Positions 5,531 to 53,176 of a DNA stretch of 64,000 nucleotides are shown piece after piece. The DNA is taken from assembly GCF_006345805.1 (NCBI RefSeq), contig NC_042998.1, positions 158,162,001-158,226,000 of the forward strand, written 5' to 3'. The notes beneath the pieces were generated by a model. It ran no database searches, was not told the origin of the DNA, and saw only the letters and a program-made list of their open reading frames with translations. The stretch comes from Octopus sinensis (taxonomy: Eukaryota). Position 1 is the stretch's first letter, and every line of letters starts with the position of its first letter. Both the position numbers and the translations under genes were made by a program.

Positions 5531-6659
5531 TCAGGTCGTCCAATAAGTTCAATCCGAATTTTGAATAAAGAAAACAAGTGATCAAATGTTATATTTAAAT
5601 GTCAGTTTCGATCTCCTCCCGGCTAGCGAAAGTTATGTCCCCCAAAGGATTCTGTAAACTACGAAACAAATGGTCGCCTGAAGGAGCAAGGTCGGGAGAA
5701 TAATGTGAATGAGGAATTTTTTCCCTACCAAGCTCTTCGATGTTCTGTGATGTGATCTTTACAGTGTGGGGTCGCGCATTGTCATGATGAAACATCACTC
5801 CAAAGCTGGGTTCAAACACTCTAATTGCTGACTTGAGCATTGATTGTTGCATTAGGTGGTAACAATTCAAAGTGAATTACTCCTTTGCAATCCCACCAGA
5901 TAGAGAGAATAACCTTTTTCCCATGAAGTTCCCTTCTCGGTTGTGGTTGAGCTTTGTCACTTTTACCAAGCCACTGTTTACGACGTTTAACATTTCGATA
6001 GAAGATCCATTTTTCGTCACCAGTCACAAGTCTATCCAAAAAGGGTGAAATGAGTTCACGAGAATGGAGAGAAGAGCAGATGTCAACTCGGGATTTGCGG
6101 TTGCTTTCGAACAATTCATGAGGCACCCATTTTCCAAGTTTAGGAACCTTTCCAAATTGTTGAAGATGACGATGAACAGTTGTATGATTTGATCTAAGCT
6201 TTATTGCCAATTCTTCAACTGATAATGCAGGATTTTCTTCAAGCAATGCCTCAAAGAGCTTATCATCAAACTCAACTGGACGTCCTGTTCGATCTTCATC
6301 TTCAAGGCTGAAATCTCCACTTCTGAATTTTGCAAGCCATCTTCTGCAAGTTCTTTCACTCAAGCATTCTTTCCCATAAACTGAGGGTACGTTTCGAGTC
6401 GCTTTGGCTGCAGAGTTTCCATTTTTTGTATTCATAAAGCATTAGGTGCCTTAAATGCTCTTTGGATACTTCCATTTTAGAAAGGGTTTTAATCAAAGAA
6501 ATTTTAATTCTATTATTCAGTAAAATAATATTTAATTAGCTTACTTGTACACAAATTCATAAAAATAATTTTTAATTCCATTAGACATTCTAAAATACAA
6601 TTAAATTTCATTCAATTTTAAAAAAGATAAAATCGGACAGAACTTATGGGATGACCTGG
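5531..6659 (-). mobile_element. Mariner transposon with transposase pseudogene (DD34D-type)
   Basis: TIRs tcaggtcgtccaataagttcaatccga / tcggacagaacttatgggatgacctgg with TA on both sides. ATG at 6475 (MEVSKEHLRHLML). Motifs WVPHEL, TGDEKW, HDNARPH and YSPDLAPS; frameshifts and deletions present. Confidence 0.95.
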
Positions 6660-6999: not shown

Positions 7000-7210
7000 A
7001 AGGCAGTGAGCTGGCAGAATTATTAAGACGCCATACAAAGTTCATAGTGGCGTTTCTTCCGGTTTTACGCTCTGGGTTCAAATTTCATCGAATTTGCCTT
7101 TCATACTTTCGGGGCGAATAAAGTAAGTACCAGTTGAGAACTGGGTTCGATGTAATCGACCTCACCCTCCCTTCAAAGACTGCTGGCCTTGTGCCAAGTT
7201 TTAAAGCCAT
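7000..7210 (+). mobile_element. tRNA-derived SINE family 1 (octopus OK/OR-like)
   Basis: A-box-like ggcagtgagctggcagaa, B-box-like gggttcaaatt and the core ttgcctttcat..tttcgggg....taaataagtaccagtt are shared with many copies in the window. The family name is from recall, not a search. Confidence 0.8.
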
Positions 7211-12868: not shown

Positions 12869-13560
12869 ATGCCTAGAAGGAAAGCGTCAAATTTGCCAAC
12901 AATATCAAGGTCAGCCAAAAGAATGTCTCTGTCCAGGGAAAGAAAGATAGCTGCAGAAAGGGAAGCACGCCAAGAAACGAACAGACTATGCACTACAAAA
13001 GTCAGAGTATCTCAAAGTGATGAACAAATGTATGCACAACTGACAAGAAATAGGATTTCCACTGCAGAACGAAGAGGAGCAACTTCTATGAAGCAGCTTC
13101 CAGTTATGATCTAGCAGTTCATTAAGCAGAGTTTCCATTGGTGCAATGACAACTGAGTGCGTACATTGTAAAGCAAAGAAGTACTGTTCTATGTTTAAGA
13201 GATGAGCAATTATGTACATTATTTACATTATTTACAATTGACGGATATTTGTCCTCATCTTGTTTGTTGTTAACACAACCTTTCGGCTGATATACCGTCC
13301 AGCCTTCATCGGGTGTCTTGGGGAAATTTCGAACCTGGGTTCTCATTCCTAAATTATTTTTCGACGTTGTTGTTGTTGTTATTATTATTATTATTATTGT
13401 TCAATTCACTTCAGCCACCAGGATTTCCACCACACATTCTGATCATGAAAACAGGTGCTCCCATAATGCTATTAAGAAACCTTGGTACACCCAGACTCTG
13501 CAATGGAACAAGGTTGGTTGCTAAAACAGGCATGCCCCTTGTGTTGGAAGCAACATATCC
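12869..13560 (+). pseudogene. Helitron RepHel remnant: N-terminal region plus PIF1-helicase fragment
   Basis: MPRRKASNL...RSAKRM...EREARQETNRL and IGAMTTECVHCKAKK resemble Helitron N-termini. [39 protein letters not shown] is the PIF1/Helitron helicase motif. Confidence 0.85.
13184..13397 (-). mobile_element. Short Penelope-type terminal-repeat (pLTR-like) element with a degenerate minimal type I hammerhead (13272-13317)
   Basis: Minus strand reads gacac-CCGAUGA-a-ggcug...cagcc-GAAA-ggUU-guguu. Stems I and II pair but the core is mutated. Homologous to 29120-29380. Confidence 0.7.
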
Positions 13561-13601
13561 AAATCCCCACATTTCTTAATTCACAAAATTCACATACATG
13601 T

Positions 13602-20157: not shown

Positions 20158-21797
20158 AACACTACCACTATAATTACTGCCAGAATTACCTGTACTAGTA
20201 CGAATGCTACGAAACCACTAACAACTCTTTTGCTACAAATACCAGCACCACCGTCACCAACGCAATCCTCACAGGCAATGTCACCACCACTGCCATCAGC
20301 AGTATCAACTGCTCCACTATAACTGACGCCATGCTCACAACAGTTACTATCACCACCATCAATACCGCCACCAGCAGCAGCAACATCGCCTACTTCCCCG
20401 TCAATACCATTATAACAATAACTATCATCTCCACATCAACTGCCGCCACACGCACCGTCCACAACAACACCATCATAGCATTATTACCATCCACCACCGT
20501 TGCCGCCGCCGCCACTACCGTGGATGGAACCAACTTAATTCATTCATAATCTTTTATTACAATACAACGGCTGACTTGATTTTCAATTTGATGAGTAATT
20601 CTTTAGAATTCATCCCGCGGGACGGAGATGTATTGTCCGGAGTTTCTCCAAAGACCTCACTCCTATTCATCACGTTGTCAACATTCTGTTCCCATATGTA
20701 GGAGAGAGGGGAGAATAAAAAATGAAAATGAATTGACAAAAAATATAAAGGAATCGCCATTGATATTAAAAGAGAACAAGCATCAAGCACTTCTGCATTG
20801 ACACTGTCATAATGTCTGTTGGTCGTTGCTTAACCAATGGATAGTTTCCTTTCTGTATGCACTCCTGTATCTGTTCTTCCTCTTTATAATTTAGAATAAG
20901 TTTTGATCGGCTACCTCCTTGGTAGCAAGGTTGTGACGGAAAGCATCATGTTTTAACTTTCATCCTTTAAACCTTAAAGAGTCTTGCAAATTTTTATAGT
21001 TCCTGATAACGTGCTTATTTGTAGTGTATGAACTAAGGATTTGCGTTCTCTCCCTAAGAACCCGAGTTCAGCCATACTTTGCTCCAGGCGGATCGATGTG
21101 CACCTTGATGCTCCAGTAATAAGTATGAAGCGGAAAGTATATCTTAGGTACTAGATTTGTAAATTCCTTATCAATGGTTTTACTAAACTCCTTATCAATG
21201 TCTCGTATTTTTCTAACCACATTGGTGTCCAGTGGGCAGCTGATTTTCACAACAGATTATGTGGTCCCACATAACAATATCTGATTGTATTTTGGTGTTT
21301 AAACTTCGAGGGTGTTTTAAATTTTAAGTTCCGCCTACAGTTTTAACACATCGGCTTCAATATAGCCAGCTTCGTCTGTTGGTCTTTATTTATTAATTAG
21401 TTGGTTGGTTATTTAACTATTTATTTTTGTTATCCTGTTCCATGCTGTCCTGGCCATTGCAAACTGCCTCATAGGAAGATAATATCTAGAAGACATCCTC
21501 TCTCTGTTGGCAATAATGTGGTTGATATTCTTCAGTGTTGGACTTGTACACCTTACATTTGTTGTCTGTTAATGCTTTCCATCTTTTATGTTGATAGAAA
21601 AATACATTTCTATCAAAAAACATTCCAAAGCTAACCTTATTTTTCCTCTGCTATCATCCCCTTTTTATCAAAAGACATGTATCTTACACCTCATTAACAC
21701 ACACCTAAACTGATCTTTAACATAAAATATCACTGAAGCTTCTCTTTATAAAATTAAGATAGTTAATTCAGTCATAAGAAAAGAATATGAAAAACAT

Positions 21798-22510
21798 ATG
21801 ACCATTATGAAGTATATTTGCCACCTAAAGGAGGCTAACCATTAAGGGTTGATGCAACTGTAACTTGTAACCCCAGGAAGAGATCTCCTCCAGCTGGCTA
21901 TACACTATCTGTAGCCTATCAGTATTTGCAAAGGGAAGTCATCGTTCCCATCTCCAGCCTGACGTGATACACACGGACACGAGTTTCTGGGTAATTGACC
22001 CATCATCAGCGTGTGACAACCACCGGTTGGCGAAAGGAAATAATTCTTAATGCAAATTCATATGCACATTTCCAGTGACGAAATGTCACTGATCTCGAAA
22101 AAGTGAAAACAAGCAATAATAAATCTCTGAGCGAGCTATAAACAGTAGCTGCACGACATCGTGAAGTATATTTGCTTGTTTCCACCTTTTCGAGATCAGT
22201 GAATTTTTCGTCACTGGAAAAAGTATGTATATATTTGCATTGAGAATCATTTCCCATCACAACCGGTAGTTTTCACACGCTTATGACGGATCAATGCTCT
22301 GAAACTTGGGTCCGTATGTATCACGTCAGGCTGCAAATGGGAACGATGACTTCTCTTTGCAAATACTGATAGGGCACAGGGGATGTCTTCCTGGGCTAAA
22401 AGCTACAGTAGCATCAACCCTTAAGGGGTTAGCCACATTTTGGTGGCACATATACTTCATGATGTCATGCAAATATTGTTTATAGCTTGCTCAGAGATTT
22501 ATTATTGCTT
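21798..22510. mobile_element. Two inverted ~350-bp hammerhead-containing units (PLE pLTR or retrozyme monomers)
   Basis: The minus-strand unit 21798-22175 has terminal redundancy tgaagtatatttgc at 21808 and 22162 (period 354). It is followed by a plus-strand unit 22172-22510 that begins and ends with ttgctt. The two align as a diverged inverted repeat. Confidence 0.8.
21970..22015 (-). ncRNA. Type I hammerhead ribozyme (intact core)
   Basis: cacacg-CUGAUGA-ugggu-caauu-accca-GAAA-c-ucgu-GUC-cgugug: 6-bp stem I, 5-bp stem II, minimal stem III. Predicted cleavage between 21976 and 21975. A degenerate homologue lies on + at about 22274-22318 (CUUAUGA). Confidence 0.85.
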
Positions 22511-22944
22511 ATCTGACCATTATATATTTCACTAAAGGTCAACTATCCAAATGGAACAAGCCCTTCATAAAACACTTCTTAAATGCTCCACCACCTCCCG
22601 ACTCCACTCAATCAATTATCTTGCTTTTACCATTTACTACTTTCTTTGAGCACTTGTTCATCAACACTCCTTCACTATCTCACTTATTAAGAAACCCCAA
22701 CCCCACCCCAGGTACACCCAAATCTCTTATATATAGAATTAGACAGCACAACCTGGGGTTAGTTTGACAATCGCCACTGACGAATGCGATAAATTTCTCC
22801 AGAAAAGTTTACAAGGAATCTTTAAAAAATTCTCTACCGGAGTTGACAAAGAACTTACCATATCAACAAACCAAACTGTAAAATTATATTAAAAAATTAA
22901 ATTGATTAGAACTACCAGTGAAGTCATTCTTTACCTTTTTCAAA

Positions 22945-24427
22945 TATATGGTGGTTGACTACTCCTTATGCAGAGTTTGACTACCTCCTCTACCTACACC
23001 TTAGAACCATCATGGCATCTGATGTGGCTTTTTAAACCAGACAATGTTTTGAAAAGATACTCACATAGATTGCATATCCGATTTGGACCACAAAGAGCTA
23101 CAGATAAGTTCAGACTTTGTGCATCTTAAAATGTCTTTTGAGGGCTCCGTTATATTTTAAAACCTCCTGGCATACATTGCATTGAAAGGCGTGCATAGAC
23201 ATATAGGCAGAATAGTTGGTGGAGGTTCGTTTTCTACGGGTTCTCAAATGAGATTTGGTGGAGGCTCGTTTTCTACGGATTCTCAAATGAGCAAAAGAAA
23301 GGCATAATCTGTCATAAACTGTGCGCATAAAACGTTCATTGTCATTCACCTTCTCAATCGTAGCATCCTTCTTTAAATCTCTCTTGAGTCCTGCATGCGT
23401 TATCCTGACCTCTTCAAACGCTTTCACTCACTCCACACTTTTGTTTGCCATCCAGCTCGATCCGAAGCAAGGGTTTCTATATCCTCCAGACCCATTCCAA
23501 GTCACTTTATAGTAGTCCTTATGGCGTCCTTAAAACTTTTTTATGCTTACGCCGATAGCGTTTCCCCTCTGCTTGCTCACCATAAAACGGTTGTTTGGTC
23601 CTGTGTTAATCGCCATTCGAACAATATGGCCACATCATCTCATTTGGTTTCTCAAAATCATAGCTTTGATTGTAGTAAAGCCCGCAGATGCAATGATATC
23701 TGTGTTTGGAGGAAAAGAAGTCCATTTAATGTTTAAAATGCGATGAAGACATTTTTGGCGGAATTGTATAAAATGTCTTTCATAACATGTCCATGTTTCA
23801 CAAGAATACAACAGGGATAGTAAGACAAATTATTTGTACAGAGCCAACTTTGTATTATTATCTATATGTCGCTGACGCCAAACGTGTGACTCCAAGCCAC
23901 CAAATGCTCGTGCTGCTCTTTGAATTCGCAGATGTATTTCTGTATCCAGATTTCCATCATTTTGTATAGAGCTTTCAAGGTAGATGAACAAAAATTTTAG
24001 AGAAGTTACGAACAGCATCACATGCAGGTTAATACATTACAACAGTTCATGGTCAAGTCAAAATCATCACAAGCTGAGTCAAATGCAGATACAAGAGATT
24101 GCAGACCTGTTTCCGAATGACTGATACGAGCGCAATCGTTAGCGTATAAAATTTCCCTAATAAGTAAAGTAAAAACGTTCATTTTGAATTTCTGTCTGGT
24201 CAGATTAAAAACATTTCTTGTTGTTATCGTATGAAAATACCTTCCTCCGAGTTTAGAGCAGCGTGTTACAACACAATAGCAAAGTATATTGCAAAGAGGG
24301 TTGGTGCATCAAGGTCTCCTTGCTTTACTCCATTTTTCACGGCAAAAGATTCAGAGAGCCTACCACCAAATTAACTCTAGCTTTCATATCTTGATGCAAA
24401 GCCCTGATCATGTTTACAAATTTCAAG
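22945..24427 (-). mobile_element. 5'-truncated, decayed RTE-clade LINE (RT plus C-terminal C2H2-like fingers)
   Basis: Minus-strand frames give GVKQGDLDAPTLFAIYF, LYANDC (YADD equivalent), NDGNLDTEIHLRIQRAARAFGGL, CNVCQEVLKYNGALKRHFKMH and CNLCEYLFKTLSGLKSHIRCH, with multiple stops and frameshifts. Confidence 0.9.
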
Positions 24428-24599
24428 TATATATATATATTTCTTTACTGCCCACAAGGGGCTAAATATAGAGGGAACACAAACAAGGACAGACAAACGG
24501 ATTAAGTCGATTATATCGACCCCAGTGTGAAACTGGTACTTTATTTATCGACCCCGAAAGGATGAAAGGCAAAGTCGACCTCGGCGGAATTTATATATA

Positions 24600-25400
24600 A
24601 ATAATAACAAAATAATAACTAAAACATATGCATATATACATACATATATGTACGTACCTACATCTATATGTATATATGCATGCATATATGGGTACAGGAC
24701 ACCAACAAAACGTCGAACACAATGAGAAACGAAAACATAAAAACAAAACCAAGGAAACGGACATTTTTTTAAACAACGAAAAAAACAGAGTACAAGACAT
24801 ACAACACAAGGAAAATTCCCCTTCTTCGGCCGCCTCTGTTTCGTCTACTCCGTGTTTCGAAGGTAAAGGCGAGACACGACTTCTTAGAAACAGTCCTTCC
24901 CGCAAAGCAAATTAAATAAAATTTGAGATTTTTTGCGGAGGGGTAAAAACGGTAAAAAAAAAAACAGGACAGTAAAGACAATACAAATAAAATCAGTAAA
25001 AGACAGGACAAGGAGAATAACAGTAACACAAACTTTAAGGGTTGTTAAGCCTGAACGAAGGAAAAATTATTTTGAACGCTTTGAAAACGGCTTGAGAGGG
25101 ACAGAGAAAGCCGTCTACACTTGTTGGAAGTAGTAGTCAGAAAGGCAGTAGACCTCTGGTCACGTGTCAGTGACAGGAGGTGGGAGAAGGAGTAAGAGAA
25201 AGGGAGAGAAAAAAGGGAAGGGTTGTAGAGAAAACCAGAAAGAATGAAGAATGAGAAAGAGAGAGGGATAGTAAGTTTAGAAGAAAAGGAAACCAGAAAG
25301 AATGAAGAATGAGAGAGGGAGGTGGACAGAAAGGTTAAGAGAGCGCATATATAGTTTAGTTTTTCTGTTAAAGTAAGATTAACCCAAAAAGTATTCCCAA
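24600..25400 (-). mobile_element. Dispersed repeat family X, copy C; carries the rearranged hammerhead motif at 24818-24879
   Basis: Aligns by eye with 28301-28845, 32150-32935 and 52570-53170 (e.g. gtaggtacgtacatatatg, ttcgacgt...ggtgtcctgtac, cttcgaaac, gaagaagggga). Confidence 0.85.
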
Positions 25401-25465: not shown

Positions 25466-25579
<114 letters not shown>

Positions 25580-26115
25580 AAAGGGCTTAGTAAAATAAAT
25601 TACTTTGCCGCATACTGAACTCGTTAGAAATAGCAGCTAAAAAAACTTTTTATAAAACTATTTCTAACACTTAAAGAAAACCTCTCTCATATAGTGTTTG
25701 CTCAATTCAACTCAAGAAAGTATGAGGGTAGAGACATTAAAAAATCAAATGCAAAGGTTATTTGAGTACGTATTTACTAAGCCCTTTTATATAATGTAAT
25801 AATTTGAATTTGCCTTAAATGGTCCCTTTGCATACTGAATACTTGGTGAAATTGATTAATTAATTAATTAATTTTACCCTCAATTGTTGAAATTATAATT
25901 CATCTCTCTCTACTTAATTGTCTCGGATTTTACCGAAAAAAGCATAGTGTTTGCTGATTTTAACCCACGCTGGTGGAAAGGGGAGAGCAGAAAATTTTCT
26001 CTTGCATATTTGAGTTTGTTGGCACTGTTAGTTTGGAGCAGATCTTCAGAAGCGATAACAAGCCGAAAGGGTATGCTCCCATTTTCAGTGTTTTCAAATT
26101 CAAACAAGGGCATTC

Positions 26116-26168
26116 TGAGCTGATGAGAGAAGGGTCGATTTTGACTAATCTTGAAACGTACGTACTCA
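26116..26168 (+). ncRNA. Minimal type I hammerhead ribozyme, unit 1
   Basis: ugag-CUGAUGA-gaga-ag-gguc-gauuuu-gacu-aa-ucuu-GAAA-cguac-GUA-cuca, with a palindromic stem III region ACGUACGU typical of dimer-forming minimal HHRs. Predicted cleavage after 26164. Confidence 0.85.
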
Positions 26169-26674
26169 AATAACCTTTGCATTTGATTTTTTAATGTCTC
26201 TACCCTCATACTTTCTTGAGTTGAATTGAGCAAACACTATATGAGAGAGGTTTTCTTTAAGTGTTAGAAATAGTTTTATAAAAAGTTTTTTTAGCTGCTA
26301 TTTCTAACGAGTTCAGTATGCGGCAAGTAATTTATTTTACTAAGCCCTTTTATATAATGTAATAATTTGAATTTGCCTTAAATGGTCCCTTTGCATACTG
26401 AATACTTGGTGAAATGATTAATTAATTAATTAATTTTACCCTCAATTGTTGAAATATAATTCATCTCTCTCTACTTAATTGTCTCGGATTTTACCGAAAA
26501 AAGCATAGTGTTTGCTGATTTTAACCCACGCTGGTGGAAAGGGGAGAGCAGAAAATTTTCTCTTGCATATTTGAGTTGTTAGCACTGTTAGTTTGGAGCA
26601 GATCTTCAGAAGCGATAACAAGCCGAAAGGTATGCTCCCATTTTCAGTGTTTTCAAATTCAAACAAGGGCATTC

Positions 26675-26727
26675 TGAGCTGATGAGAGAAGGGTCGATTT
26701 TGACTAATCTTGAAACGTACGTACTCA
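26675..26727 (+). ncRNA. Minimal type I hammerhead ribozyme, unit 2
   Basis: Identical to 26116-26168. Predicted cleavage after 26723, 559 nt downstream of the first site. Confidence 0.85.
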
Positions 26728-27206
26728 AATAACCTTTGCATTTGATTTTTTAATGTCTCTACCCTCATACTTTCTTGAGTTGAATTGAGCAACACATATG
26801 AGAGGGTTTTCTTTAAGTGTTAGAAATAGTTTTATAAAAAGTTTTTTTAGCTGCTATTTCTAACGAGTTCAGTATGCGGCAAAGTAATTTATTTTACTAA
26901 GCCCTTTTATATAATGTAATAATTTGAATTTGCCTTAAATGGTCCCTTTGCATACTGAATACTTGGTGAAATTGATTAATTAATTAATTAATTAATTTTA
27001 CCCTCAATTGTTGAAATTATATATATATATATATATGTAGGACAGCTTCATTCGGTTTCCGTCTACCAGATCCACTCACAAGGCTTTGGTTGGCTTGAGT
27101 ATATAGCACTTGCCCAAGGTGCCACGCAATTGGATTGAACCAGGAACCATGTAGTTGGTAAACAAACTTTTTACCACACACCTACTTCTGCGCGTGTGAG
27201 ATATAT

Positions 27207-28221: not shown

Positions 28222-28300
28222 ACTCGCAAGCAAATGAAATAGATAAACAGATACGCTCTTCCATTCTGTGTAAATGAGTGTGTGTATATATATATATATA

Positions 28301-28845
28301 TTGGTCGACATTCTTTCTCTCTCGTCGTCCACTATAATCCAGCGTTTGCATTACTTTTTTCGTCTGGCGTAAACAGCCCTTCTTATCTTGTTCTCCTTGT
28401 CCTGTCTCTCACTGTTATATATTTATTTTTCAACTGTTTATATATAATTTTTTTTTTTTTACTGTTTATATGTTTGTACTGTCGTTACCGTCTTGCTTTT
28501 TTTACCATTTTTTACCCCTCTGCGAAAAGATCTCAGAATTTTAATTGATTTGCTTTTCGCAGGAAGGAAGTTTCTTCGAAGTATACGTCTCGCTTTTATC
28601 CTTCGAAACGTAGAGTAGATGAAACCTTAGCGACTGAAGAAGGGGATTTTTCGTTGTGCTTATTGTCCTGTATCTCTTTTTTCTTTTTTGCTTGTCCTGT
28701 TCCTTGGTTTGTGTCTATGTTTTTCGTCTCTCTATGTGTTCGACGTCTTTTTGGTGTCCTGTACACATATATGCGTGTATATGTACATGTAGAGGTAGGT
28801 ACGTACATATATGTTTATATATATGCATATGTTCTATTTTATTAA
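28301..28845 (+). mobile_element. Dispersed repeat family X, copy A, flanked by (TA)n
   Basis: Nearly identical to 32418-32935 and more diverged from copies C and D. Confidence 0.88.
28584..28647 (+). ncRNA. Candidate non-circularly permuted (pseudoknotted) hammerhead ribozyme
   Basis: uacGUC|ucgcu-uuu-auccuuc-GAAA-cgua-(16 nt)-agcga-CUGAAGA-aggggau. Stem III is uacgu/Acgua, stem I ucgcu/agcga, stem II ggggau/auccuu beyond an A.C pair. Homologues: 32687-32751 (+), 24818-24879 (-), 52795-52856 (-). Confidence 0.6.
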
Positions 28846-29119
28846 CATATATATATATATATATATACGCGCGCGCAAACACACATACACGCACACAAAA
28901 TGGCAGATCGTTAGGAAGGAGAGGCACAAAAGAGAAAGTAGAAAGCAAAGGACCACTGATTAGGTCACAGAAGTGTGGCAAAAGAACTCTGGCCGAAATA
29001 CAATTAATATCAAATAAAGCTGAAGCAAGTGAACACCAAATATATAGTGCGCGTATTTTCATTGGCTAACCTGGCAACATGACCATCCCCAAAGACAATA
29101 ATATGTGTGTGTGTATTAT

Positions 29120-32149: not shown

Positions 32150-32930
32150 TTAACTCTCACGCGACTCTGCATCTTTCTTTCTTTCTCTCCCATTCCCTTT
32201 TTCGTCTTTTTTCCCTCACTTAACTTGTCTCTTCCTCTCTCTCTCATTCTTCATTCTCTCTCTCCCTTTCACACCATTCTTCTTCATGTCTCCTCGCACC
32301 ATTCCCCTTCTTCTCTCTCTTCCTCTTGCTCCTCCTCCCCCATTCCCGTCGTCCATCTGCGACGATACTTCCGACGTAACTGCTATCCTGTCTTTTCTCG
32401 CCCGCCTTCTAAGGCTACTGGTCGACATTTTTTCTCTCTCGTCGTCCACTATAATCCAGCGTTTGCAATACTTTTTTCGTCTGGCGTTAACAGCCCTTCT
32501 TATCTTGTTCTCCTTGTCCTGTCTCTCACTGTTATATATTTATTTTTCCACTGTTTATATATATATTTTTTACTGTTTATATGTTTGTACTGTCGTTACC
32601 GTCTTGCTTTTTTTAACCCCTCTGCGAAAAGATCTCAGAATTTTAATTGATTTGCTTTTCGCAGGAAGGAAGTTTTCTTCGAAGTATACGTCTCCGCTTT
32701 TATCCTTCGAAACGTTTAGTAGATGAAACCTTAGCGACTGAAGAAGGGGATTTTTCGTTGTGCTTATTGTCCTGTATCTCTTTTTTTGCTTGTCTTGTTC
32801 CTTGGTTTGTGTCTATGTTTTTCGTCTCTCTATGTGTTCGACGTCTTTTTGGTGTCCTGTACACATATATGCGTGTATATGTACATGTAGAGGTAGGTAC
32901 GTACATATATGTTTATATATATGCTATGTT

Positions 32931-32935
<5 letters not shown>
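32150..32935 (+). mobile_element. Dispersed repeat family X, copy B (longer pyrimidine-rich 5' part)
   Basis: 32418-32935 is nearly identical to copy A; the 5' CT-rich part resembles the extension of copy C. Confidence 0.85.
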
Positions 32936-32972
<37 letters not shown>

Positions 32973-33074: not shown

Positions 33075-33283
33075 TCTACTCTAGGAACAAGGCCCGAAAT
33101 TTTGGGGGAGGGGCTAGTCGATTAGATCGACCCTAGTACGCAACTGGTACTTAGTTTACCGACCCCGAAAGGCTAAAAGGCAAAGTTGACCTCGGCAGAA
33201 TTTGAACTCAGACCGTAAAGACAGACGAAATACTGCTAAGTATTTCGCTCGACGTGCTAATGTTTCAGCCGGCTCGCCACCTT
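33075..33283 (-). mobile_element. SINE family 1 copy (further copies or fragments at ~14609-14700, 24440-24590, 33360-33470, 35865-36076)
   Basis: aaggcccgaaattttgggggaggggctagtcgatt...gaccccgaaagg..aaaaggcaaagttgacctcggcagaatttgaactcag...ggctcgccacctt. Confidence 0.85.
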
Positions 33284-42491: not shown

Positions 42492-43065
42492 TGGTTTCAA
42501 ATTTTTGCACAATGCTAGCAATTTTGAGGAGAAGGTAGTAAGTCGCTTACATTGACACCTGTATTCCACTGGCACTTATTTTATCGACTACGAAAGGATT
42601 AAAGATTAAGTTGGCCTCGGTCGAATTTGAACTCAGGACGTAAACATGGATGGAATACTGCTAAGCATTTTCCCCGGCTTGCTAACGATTCTGCCAGCTC
42701 ACCAGATTCATTAACACACCGAAGTCCACTTATGTTTTTATCCTATCTGGGTCGATAAAATAAGTACTAGTCGAATACTGGGGTTCGACGTAATTTACTT
42801 ACCTCCTCCTCTTGTGCTAAAATTTAAAACCAAGCCAATATGTATTTCTTTATTGCCCACAGGGGGCTAAACATAGAGGGCACAGACAAAGGGATTAAGT
42901 CGATTACATCGACCCCAGTGCATAACTGATACTTATTTAATCGACCCCGAAAGGATGAAAGACAAAGTCGACCTCGGTGGATTTCGAACTCAGAACGTAA
43001 CGGCAGACGAAATATCGCTAGGCAGTTCGCCCGGCGTGCTAACAATTCTGCCAGCTTGCCGTCCT
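42492..43065 (-). mobile_element. Cluster of SINE family 1 copies (42492-42705 -, ~42720-42830 + partial, 42845-43065 -; another at 43445-43620 -)
   Basis: Repeated consensus blocks gaccccgaaaggatgaaag.caaagtcgacctcgg..gatttgaactcag and gctaac.attctgccagct. Confidence 0.85.
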
Positions 43066-49396: not shown

Positions 49397-49461
<65 letters not shown>

Positions 49462-49484
49462 TACTATTATTATTATTATTATTA

Positions 49485-49813
49485 CATGTTTGACTTTTGC
49501 TTTATATTTGTACAAGTTGGATCCAAGTCTCACCCAGAGACCTCAAGAGACAACAGGTTGGAAGTTCATGTTGTTGTTATGCCTAGTGTGCCATATATTT
49601 GGTTTTGTATTTAGTGTTGTACTTGTGAATGTTCTAAAAAAAAACATACGAAAATTATGTTTGTTTTAAAACTTGAGATTACATAGAAAGTATTTTGCGT
49701 AGGATATGAGCAGTTCCCATGAGCACTATCTTTTGAATTAGGTAGCAATCAGCCCCTTTTGCTATAATTCCCAGGGCACCTATGACAACAGTATTGTTTT
49801 AGTCGTCAGGTTC

Positions 49814-49862
<49 letters not shown>

Positions 49863-50191
49863 CATGTTTGACTTTTGCTTTATATTTGTACAAGTTGGAT
49901 CCAAGTCTCACCCAGAGACCTCAAGAGACAACAGGTTGGAAGTTCATGTTGTTGTTATGCCTAGTGTGCCATATATTTGGTTTTGTATTTAGTGTTGTAC
50001 TTGTGAATGTCTAAAAAAAAACATACGAAAATTATGTTTGTTTTAAAACTTGAGATTACATAGAAAGTATTTTGCGTAGGATATGAGCAGTTCCCATGAG
50101 CACTATCTTTTGAATTAGGTAGCAATCAGCCCCTTTTGCTATAATTCCCAGGGCACCTATGACAACAGGTATTGTTTTAGTCGTCAGGTTC

Positions 50192-50193
<2 letters not shown>
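49485..50193 (-). mobile_element. Two tandem 3' fragments of an R4/Dong-like (RLE-endonuclease) non-LTR retrotransposon in (TAA)n
   Basis: Copies at 49485-49815 and 49863-50193. 50193-50056 encodes WNLTTKTIPVVIGALGIIAKG...IQKIVLMGTAHILRKILSM*, typical of the RLE C-terminus. Each copy is embedded in (ATT)n. Confidence 0.8.
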
Positions 50194-50240
<47 letters not shown>

Positions 50241-50336
50241 CACGTATACATACATACACACATACATACATACATACATACATTCATACATACATACATA
50301 CATACATACATACATACATACATACATACATACATA

Positions 50337-52503: not shown

Positions 52504-52569
52504 CAACGATCAAACTACAAGGAAATTCTCTAGAGGAAAAATACAGCGAAAAATACATGTATATATATA

Positions 52570-53170
52570 TATATAAATATAAAATTAATAAATAAATAAA
52601 ACATATGCATATATACATACATATATGTACGTACCTACCTCTACATGTGTATATACATGCATATATGGGTACAGGACACCAAAAAAACGTCGAACACAAT
52701 GAGAAACGAAAACATAAACACAAAACCAAGGAAATGGACATTTTTCTCAAACAACGAAAAAATAGAGTACAGGACATACAAAACAAGGAAAATTCCTTTT
52801 CTTCAGTCGCTTTTGTTTCCTCTACTCCACGTTTCGAAGGTCAAGGCGATACATGACTTTAATGAAACAATCCTTCCCGCGAAAATCAAATTAAATAAAA
52901 TTTGAGATTTTTTTGCGGAAGGGTAAAAATGGTAACAAAAACAGGACAGTAACGACAGTACAAAATATAAACAGTAAAAGACAGGACAAGGAGAATAACA
53001 GTAACACAAACAAGAAGGGCTGTTAAGCCGAACGAGATAAAATATTTTACGAACACTATTTTTTGAGAACGGCGAAGGAGCAACAGAAAGTGCCGTCTCT
53101 ACTTGAAGGCACCCAGGACAGAATGTCAGTAGCAGAGCTCTCGTCGCAGGTCAACGACTGGAGGGAGGAG
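52570..53170 (-). mobile_element. Dispersed repeat family X, copy D; rearranged hammerhead motif at 52795-52856
   Basis: Closest to copy C. The motif reads ucauGUA|ucgcc-uuga-ccuuc-GAAA-cgugg...agcga-CUGAAGA-aaagg. Confidence 0.85.
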
Positions 53171-53176
53171 GAGGAG

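Follow-up and report, generated by a model that had tools for sequence, protein, structure and literature searches.

Both ingredients of the locus described here, small animal hammerhead retroelements and the inverted, tailed insertion layout of Penelope-like elements (PLEs), are already known. Invertebrate non-LTR retrozymes, in the account given by Cervera and de la Pena (2020, PMC7229834), measure 170–400 nt (350–390 bp in mussel), are low in GC and are bounded by target-site duplications (TSDs) longer than 4 bp. Circular templates and mobilization by PLEs have been proposed before (PMC4209133; PMC7229834; PMC7761336; 10.64898/2026.07.22.740005), the case for PLE mobilization resting so far on the hammerheads common to both, on their co-occurrence and on kinship with pLTRs (PMC7229834; 10.64898/2026.07.22.740005). 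For PLEs themselves, Craig et al. describe an adjacent inverted 5′ copy and a 30–40-bp tail as typical, and the origin of the tandem and inverted structures is called unresolved (PMC8557442). In Adineta, Pen2a has an adjacent inverted pLTR that overlaps the direct one by 15 bp, together with a 31-bp tail and a 9-bp TSD (PMC3846280). The purified Anolis PLE protein, a predicted dimer, is reported to cut and extend both strands, to start at two internal RNA sites that define the genomic tail and to prefer unprocessed RNA, with no need for ribozyme cleavage; the 30–40-bp tail corresponds to the two fixed reverse-transcription start sites (PMC11167929).

We analyzed a 64,000-nt stretch of an Octopus sinensis contig (the window), which contains a fold-back of two copies of a hammerhead-bearing unit. 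Self-comparison of the window (blastn, word size 7) returned one large inverted match (21798–22468, E 4e-132) and a second inverted match of 65 nt (22111–22175 with 22446–22510; 58/65 identical, 89%). Together they delimit a head-to-head pair of 333–354-nt unit copies that are 86–89% identical and have TTGC in common (Table 1). With T denoting the 65-nt piece, U the rest of the unit and t the first 13 nt of T, the top strand reads rc(t) rc(U) rc(T), then U T, so that the second copy of T is the right outer end (22446–22510).

Table 1 Features of the inverted hammerhead element and its immediate flanks (window coordinates).
Feature	Position	Strand	Description
TSD left copy, 13 bp	21796–21808	+	12/13 identical to 22511–22523; best flank match
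Left arm	21809–22175	−	367 nt: 354-nt period + 13-nt terminal redundancy; sense strand outward (left)
Segment present in left arm only, 21–22 nt	21890–21910 (approximate)	−	From arm alignments
Type I hammerhead	21970–22015 (read 22015–21970)	−	Core CUGAUGA (22009–22003), GAAA, GUC; predicted cut after 21976
Segment T, 65 nt	22111–22175	−	Unpaired center between the arms and 5′ start of left arm
Inversion junction, TTGC	22172–22175	.	Common to both arms; 9/13 when extended, imperfect
Right arm	22172–22510	+	339 nt: 333-nt period + 6-nt redundancy; sense strand outward (right)
Decayed hammerhead copy	22274–22318	+	Core CUUAUGA; helix I with one mismatch, helix II disrupted; missed by motif scan
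Tail	22459–22510	+	42–52 nt by which right outer end exceeds left on the unit map
TSD right copy, 13 bp	22511–22523	+	12/13 identical to 21796–21808
ORF-like stretch, not part of the element	22551–22958	+	Flank beyond the TSD; 5 stops in 136 codons

The first-pass annotation of this DNA had described the minus-strand copy as one 354-nt period with a short redundancy, which is borne out by a direct repeat (21803–21821 and 22157–22175), and had joined the two copies through a ttgc microhomology, which the shared TTGC confirms. It had also given the plus-strand copy a single period with ttgctt at both ends. The ends are as described (22172–22177 and 22505–22510), but the period is 333 nt and not about 350, because this arm is without the 21–22 nt present near 21890–21910 in the left one. 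Similarly, the inverted match does begin at 21798, where the left copy had been taken to start; the arm itself most likely ends at 21809, with 21796–21808 belonging to the TSD. Outside T, 243/281 aligned bases are identical between the arms, and the alignment has nine gaps, one of them that of 21–22 nt. The closed 354-nt map depends on a single T-to-U junction (22111/22110), and a template jump could also create such a junction.

The unit has a GC content of 43.5% and is non-coding: no frame exceeds chance level, the longest stop-free runs being 50–60 codons, and a run of 60 was reached by 597 of 2,000 shuffled right arms. On this count, and for want of a Pfam match, we rejected a vestigial ORF within the unit. 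In the left arm, a 33-codon frame starts from an ATG within the hammerhead core (22006–21908, minus strand); it too is at chance level and has no Pfam match. With one period plus 13 or 6 nt on each strand, a head-to-tail tandem is absent from the locus. No further copy of the unit was found in the window by blastn (word size 7) or by nhmmer with profiles of the arms and of T, and exact-pattern scans of bacterial and archaeal genome contigs for the element gave 0 matches. A tRNA-derived SINE origin was discarded, as ARAGORN found 0 tRNA genes in the window.

A 13-bp direct repeat, overlooked in the first-pass annotation, sits exactly outside both arms. Its 12/13 level of identity was reached by 4 of 3,000 control pairs of 40-nt windows taken at equal spacing, microsatellite-containing windows being excluded. 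We read this repeat as a TSD and both arms as products of one event, since a TSD around both arms implies a single insertion. The unit is not continued into the flanks, where equal scores were obtained in 422/500 (left) and 128/500 (right) shuffles. At the left end, a microhomology of target and unit that might have served in priming is not claimed, since 47/500 shuffles score as well; its one effect is to blur this boundary by 10 nt. The target site and the next bases (22511–22533) loosely resemble the antisense of the start of T, a likeness that may arise by chance where DNA is AT-rich, and the search with the profile of T returned nothing at 22511–22533.

Two independent insertions, or one insertion duplicated by DNA-level fold-back or inversion, would make the flanking 13-mer match a coincidence. 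The difference of 13.5% between the arms, together with the 21–22-nt indel, could mean different templates or ages, and the left 13-mer partly resembles the unit. We nevertheless regard such a two-step history as improbable: the 13-mer pair brackets the arms exactly, at the low control rate given above, and its right member is closer to the left copy (12/13) than to the unit. Fold-back of the left arm alone, moreover, could not supply the last 42–52 nt of the right arm, and divergence is similar in size in the TSD (1/13) and in T (7/65).

The hammerhead of the left arm has a helix I of 6 bp with a distal 5-bp helix, a helix II of 5 bp and a helix III of 2 bp with a tetraloop. It was the sole match when the window was scanned for the motif on both strands, and 0/100 shuffled windows gave any. 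The canonical core (CUGANGA, GAAA and NUH, with helix I open) is present in the left arm and lost from the right, so that, as judged from the sequence, the left core is intact and that of the right copy is broken. A G10.1–C11.1 pair at the base of helix II is typical of hammerheads, not universal; the left arm has U-A at this position and the right arm C/U. Axolotl HHR_Amex2 is described as retaining cleavage with a U-U mismatch there (PMC7229834). The helices of the left hammerhead (6, 5 and 2 bp) fit the sizes given for the canonical type I motif (about 6, about 4 and 1–2 bp; PMC4209133). Both arms have a nearly self-complementary helix III region, as do metazoan hammerheads that act as dimers (PMC4209133): the 8-nt region self-pairs at 6/8 positions in the left arm and, with four wobbles, at 8/8 in the right.

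Folding and profile searches gave a less favorable picture of the ribozyme. The predicted catalytic fold (−15.3 kcal/mol) lies 5 kcal/mol above the predicted minimum, an alternative fold of −20.5 kcal/mol, and the local hammerhead fold is no better than those of shuffles (z −0.01 and −1.13). Rfam hammerhead models gave 0 matches at the gathering score and were absent from the 5 matches at E up to 10; those five weak matches (E 0.19–3.1) were dismissed as generic hairpin hits. The initial description of the minus-strand hammerhead as well formed must be qualified for the U-A pair closing helix II, the disfavored catalytic fold and the missing Rfam match. Because only one hammerhead has an intact core and the other copy lies on the opposite strand, the locus itself cannot make circles.

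The locus shares with metazoan non-LTR retrozymes, as these are described in PMC7229834 and in the preprint of Li et al. (10.64898/2026.07.22.740005), its unit size (354 and 333 nt), its non-coding nature, a GC content below 50%, a TSD longer than 4 bp (here 13 bp) and a type I hammerhead whose 2-bp helix III carries a tetraloop. Its copies also differ in length by an indel of about 20 nt, as do Acropora retrozyme variants. Unlike the retrozymes described in these sources, the copies here are inverted and form no head-to-tail tandem, and helix II closes with U-A. An active retrozyme would have at least two head-to-tail hammerheads on the same strand; such a tandem is absent here, and the locus is therefore not filed as an active retrozyme.

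In its layout, the locus resembles insertions of endonuclease-bearing PLEs such as Pen2a_Av of Adineta vaga (PMC3846280) and Poseidon PAc of Anolis (PMC11167929). An inverted copy adjoins the 5′ end of the direct copy with a short overlap, one TSD surrounds both, one side has an extension and a hammerhead lies in the repeat. It differs from them in that this extension is 42–52 nt instead of 30–40, the hammerhead is canonical and not minimal, and an ORF for RT or GIY-YIG is lacking: none lies inside the TSD, and no such match was found in the flanks. The inverted arm is here a full period plus 13 nt, whereas that of Pen2a is shorter than its pLTR (PMC3846280). Without an RT and GIY-YIG ORF, the element is not an autonomous PLE; the most fitting name for it is a non-autonomous hammerhead element whose insertion has PLE geometry.

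The arms could instead be ORF-less pLTR and tail pieces of an autonomous PLE and not closed copies of a small unit. The right arm would then be a pLTR plus tail, and a single template jump, made over the 6-nt TTGCTT redundancy, would have produced the central copy of T. Several published observations lend this reading some weight. Pairs of minimal hammerheads on opposite strands, 100–700 bp apart, have been ascribed to truncated PLEs (PMC4209133), solo pLTRs with TSDs are known in Adineta (PMC3846280) and the ORF of the Anolis PLE begins at helix II (PMC11167929), to which the 33-codon frame from the core ATG of our left arm may be compared. The Schistosoma pairs in particular are like the locus in that each strand has one hammerhead, within a few hundred bases of the other; unlike it, they consist of the minimal PLE-type motifs ascribed to truncated PLEs (PMC4209133). 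Against the same reading, it requires an extra jump, the internal frame is at the chance level given above and has no Pfam match, and the hammerhead is of the canonical retrozyme type and not of the minimal PLE type, in which helix II has 7–8 bp and helix I 4–5 bp (PMC4209133). We therefore consider a pLTR relic unlikely, if still the most credible of the rival origins.

A related alternative had been offered in the first-pass annotation, namely a Penelope element with an inverted and a direct pLTR as its 5′ end and a decayed ORF-like stretch from ATG 22551 onward. The arms do have a PLE-type architecture, the ATG follows 41 nt past the right arm and the frame does begin with MEQALHKTLLK. The TSD, however, closes the insertion at 22523, so that everything beyond, the frame at 22551 included, is old target DNA. 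The frame meets the first of its five stops at codon 33. A phmmer search with it against 1.84 billion proteins returned one match, to a repeat protein over about 25 residues, which is spurious; a neighboring 84-aa frame had 0/32 homolog candidates at E up to 1 (weak evidence), and a six-frame Pfam search gave no relevant family. With no PLE homolog in the protein or Pfam searches, we rejected the downstream stretch as a Penelope ORF, and the alternative built on it is very improbable.

On the left flank, the longest stop-free frame (21730–21808, plus strand, 26 codons) is in phase across the TSD with an 84-codon frame at 22513–22764. These two intervals may be parts of an older coding relic that was interrupted by the insertion; Pfam and a homolog search gave no homolog for them. 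A PLE N-terminus that we suspected by eye, from its motifs, in the left flank had no Pfam match in three frames.

The window around the element is AT-rich (GC 27–40%) and dense in microsatellites (141 tandem-repeat rows) and transposon relics. Closest to the element, a decayed LINE-like relic occupies 22950–24400 on the minus strand, in which we presume RTE-type motifs. Pfam recognizes there only a weak C2H2 zinc finger (E 0.003), and the LINE-like frame had 0/9 homolog candidates; a 39-bp tandem duplication lies within it (23216–23291). A mariner transposase fragment (5824–6441, minus strand; Pfam Transposase_1 and HTH_48) has relatives at 80% in Limulus and 49% in Octopus sinensis, with 93% for the closest overall, which may hint at horizontal transfer. 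A fragment of the Pif1 helicase 2B domain (13274–13576, plus strand; E 2e-13) is probably a Helitron relic. A SINE-like repeat family, which we take to resemble octopus SINEs, is represented by 24433–24592 and eight other matches, such as 42838–42984, 33116–33203 and 7088–7160. An unclassified repeat of about 550–620 bp occurs in four copies in both orientations, 75–93% identical (24589–25192, 28299–28866, 32416–32961 and 52565–53176). A recent complex duplication at 25569–27017 combines a direct repeat of 563-bp period at 98% with a 204-bp inverted copy at 99%, and a 378-bp tandem dimer at 49436–50242 (98% identity) has ATT microsatellites at its bounds and no hammerhead motif by scan.

The arms of the 702-nt region can pair, with a predicted fold of −388 kcal/mol on the plus strand, with 80% of bases paired, and −404 kcal/mol on the minus strand. 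When each period is folded as a circle, the left arm gives z −1.35 against shuffles (7/100 as good) and the right arm z −2.78 (0/100). Retention of the fold-back as functional double-stranded RNA, for instance as a substrate for ADAR or small RNAs, would accord with the folding energies of the region. Any inverted repeat folds in this manner, however, and the arms have drifted to 86% identity with nine gaps and a longest identical run of 19–22 nt; no host gene was identified, and we judge such retention highly unlikely. The arms differ by 21 transitions and 17 transversions, with damage to the core and helices, and this divergence looks neutral. Of these, 8 are A/G and 13 are C/T differences; the lack of an A/G excess also led us to reject ADAR editing before insertion.

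Taken in order, the locus consists of a TSD, an arm pointing left, an arm pointing right and a TSD, and both arms run antisense-inward from the two target ends, as expected of two first-strand cDNAs. We consider it probable that the locus records one old retrotransposition of a small, non-coding, retrozyme-like hammerhead element, on which a Penelope-like RT/GIY-YIG enzyme acted in trans. Such an enzyme would cut the two target strands 13 nt apart, and each target 3′ end would then prime inward reverse transcription on hammerhead-strand RNA, from two start sites 42–52 nt apart within segment T. Each cDNA would pass the ribozyme cut site and run for about one period. The cDNA 3′ ends would anneal at TTGC/GCAA and copy each other, leaving head-to-head arms between the TSD copies. 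Neutral decay of the arms, including inactivation of the right ribozyme, would have followed. Points that count against this reading are the single locus, the one-sided extension of 42–52 nt (somewhat longer than the published PLE tail of 30–40 bp), the lack of a tandem and the fact that no autonomous PLE partner was seen.

L1 twin priming (PMC2246262) offers a parallel, as both target ends prime reverse transcription and an inversion results inside one TSD. In the L1 case as described, each primer copies a different stretch of a single RNA (PMC2246262), whereas the arms here are both copies of what is essentially one and the same full unit, and a poly(A) tail is absent.

What served as the template is constrained by the position of the cut site. 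Both arms cross it and extend at least 141 nt to either side. End-to-end copying of a simple linear monomer cut by the ribozyme is thereby excluded; either the RNA was circular, multimeric or uncut, or a template jump took place. We put an uncut linear RNA of more than unit length at close to an even chance, a ligated circle somewhat lower, and a unit-length linear RNA combined with a template jump lowest, as rather doubtful. The two arms had first been interpreted as different circular permutations, expected from a circular or multimeric template. The exclusion of the simple cut monomer upholds part of that argument; scattered starts find no support, as the outer ends differ by just 42–52 nt and two permutations thus need only two fixed start sites. 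In the best model, the two permutations reflect a pair of start sites separated by about 50 nt.

With the start sites fixed, both arms end within 13 nt of one lap at 1 of 36 good inverted-microhomology junctions and at 3 of 507 plain 4-mers, in a post hoc count that includes the observed junction. Such one-lap arm ends favor a circle copied with poor strand displacement, albeit in a single case considered post hoc; one-lap arms are equally explained by a linear T-U-T RNA that begins with T, or by a single jump on a unit-length RNA. Likewise, the length of one period plus 13 or 6 nt per arm hints at a circular template, and an uncut linear template fits it as well. We tentatively put forward, as a possibility short of likely, that a Penelope enzyme acted on circular retrozyme RNAs. 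A dimer would prime one circle at each nick, each cDNA would stall after one lap on meeting its own start (hence period +13 and +6 nt) and the ends would join by microhomology.

In the literature searched, which left most subscription papers outside its scope, we found no account of a retrozyme-sized unit with inverted arms, a tail and a TSD. Nor did that literature yield a cephalopod family of such elements. Additional invertebrate families are listed in the supplements of PMC7229834 and PMC4209133, and the present one could be among them. A retrozyme-sized unit bearing the insertion signature of a PLE is mechanistic evidence of a kind not found in the literature searched, while a single decayed copy proves little. 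Because the unit is very small, arm lengths can be counted across genomic copies to separate circular from linear templates. A genome-wide excess of arms of one lap plus a few bases would provide countable data on the mobilization of retrozymes by PLEs via circles, and such arm counts would also address how the inverted repeats of PLEs form.
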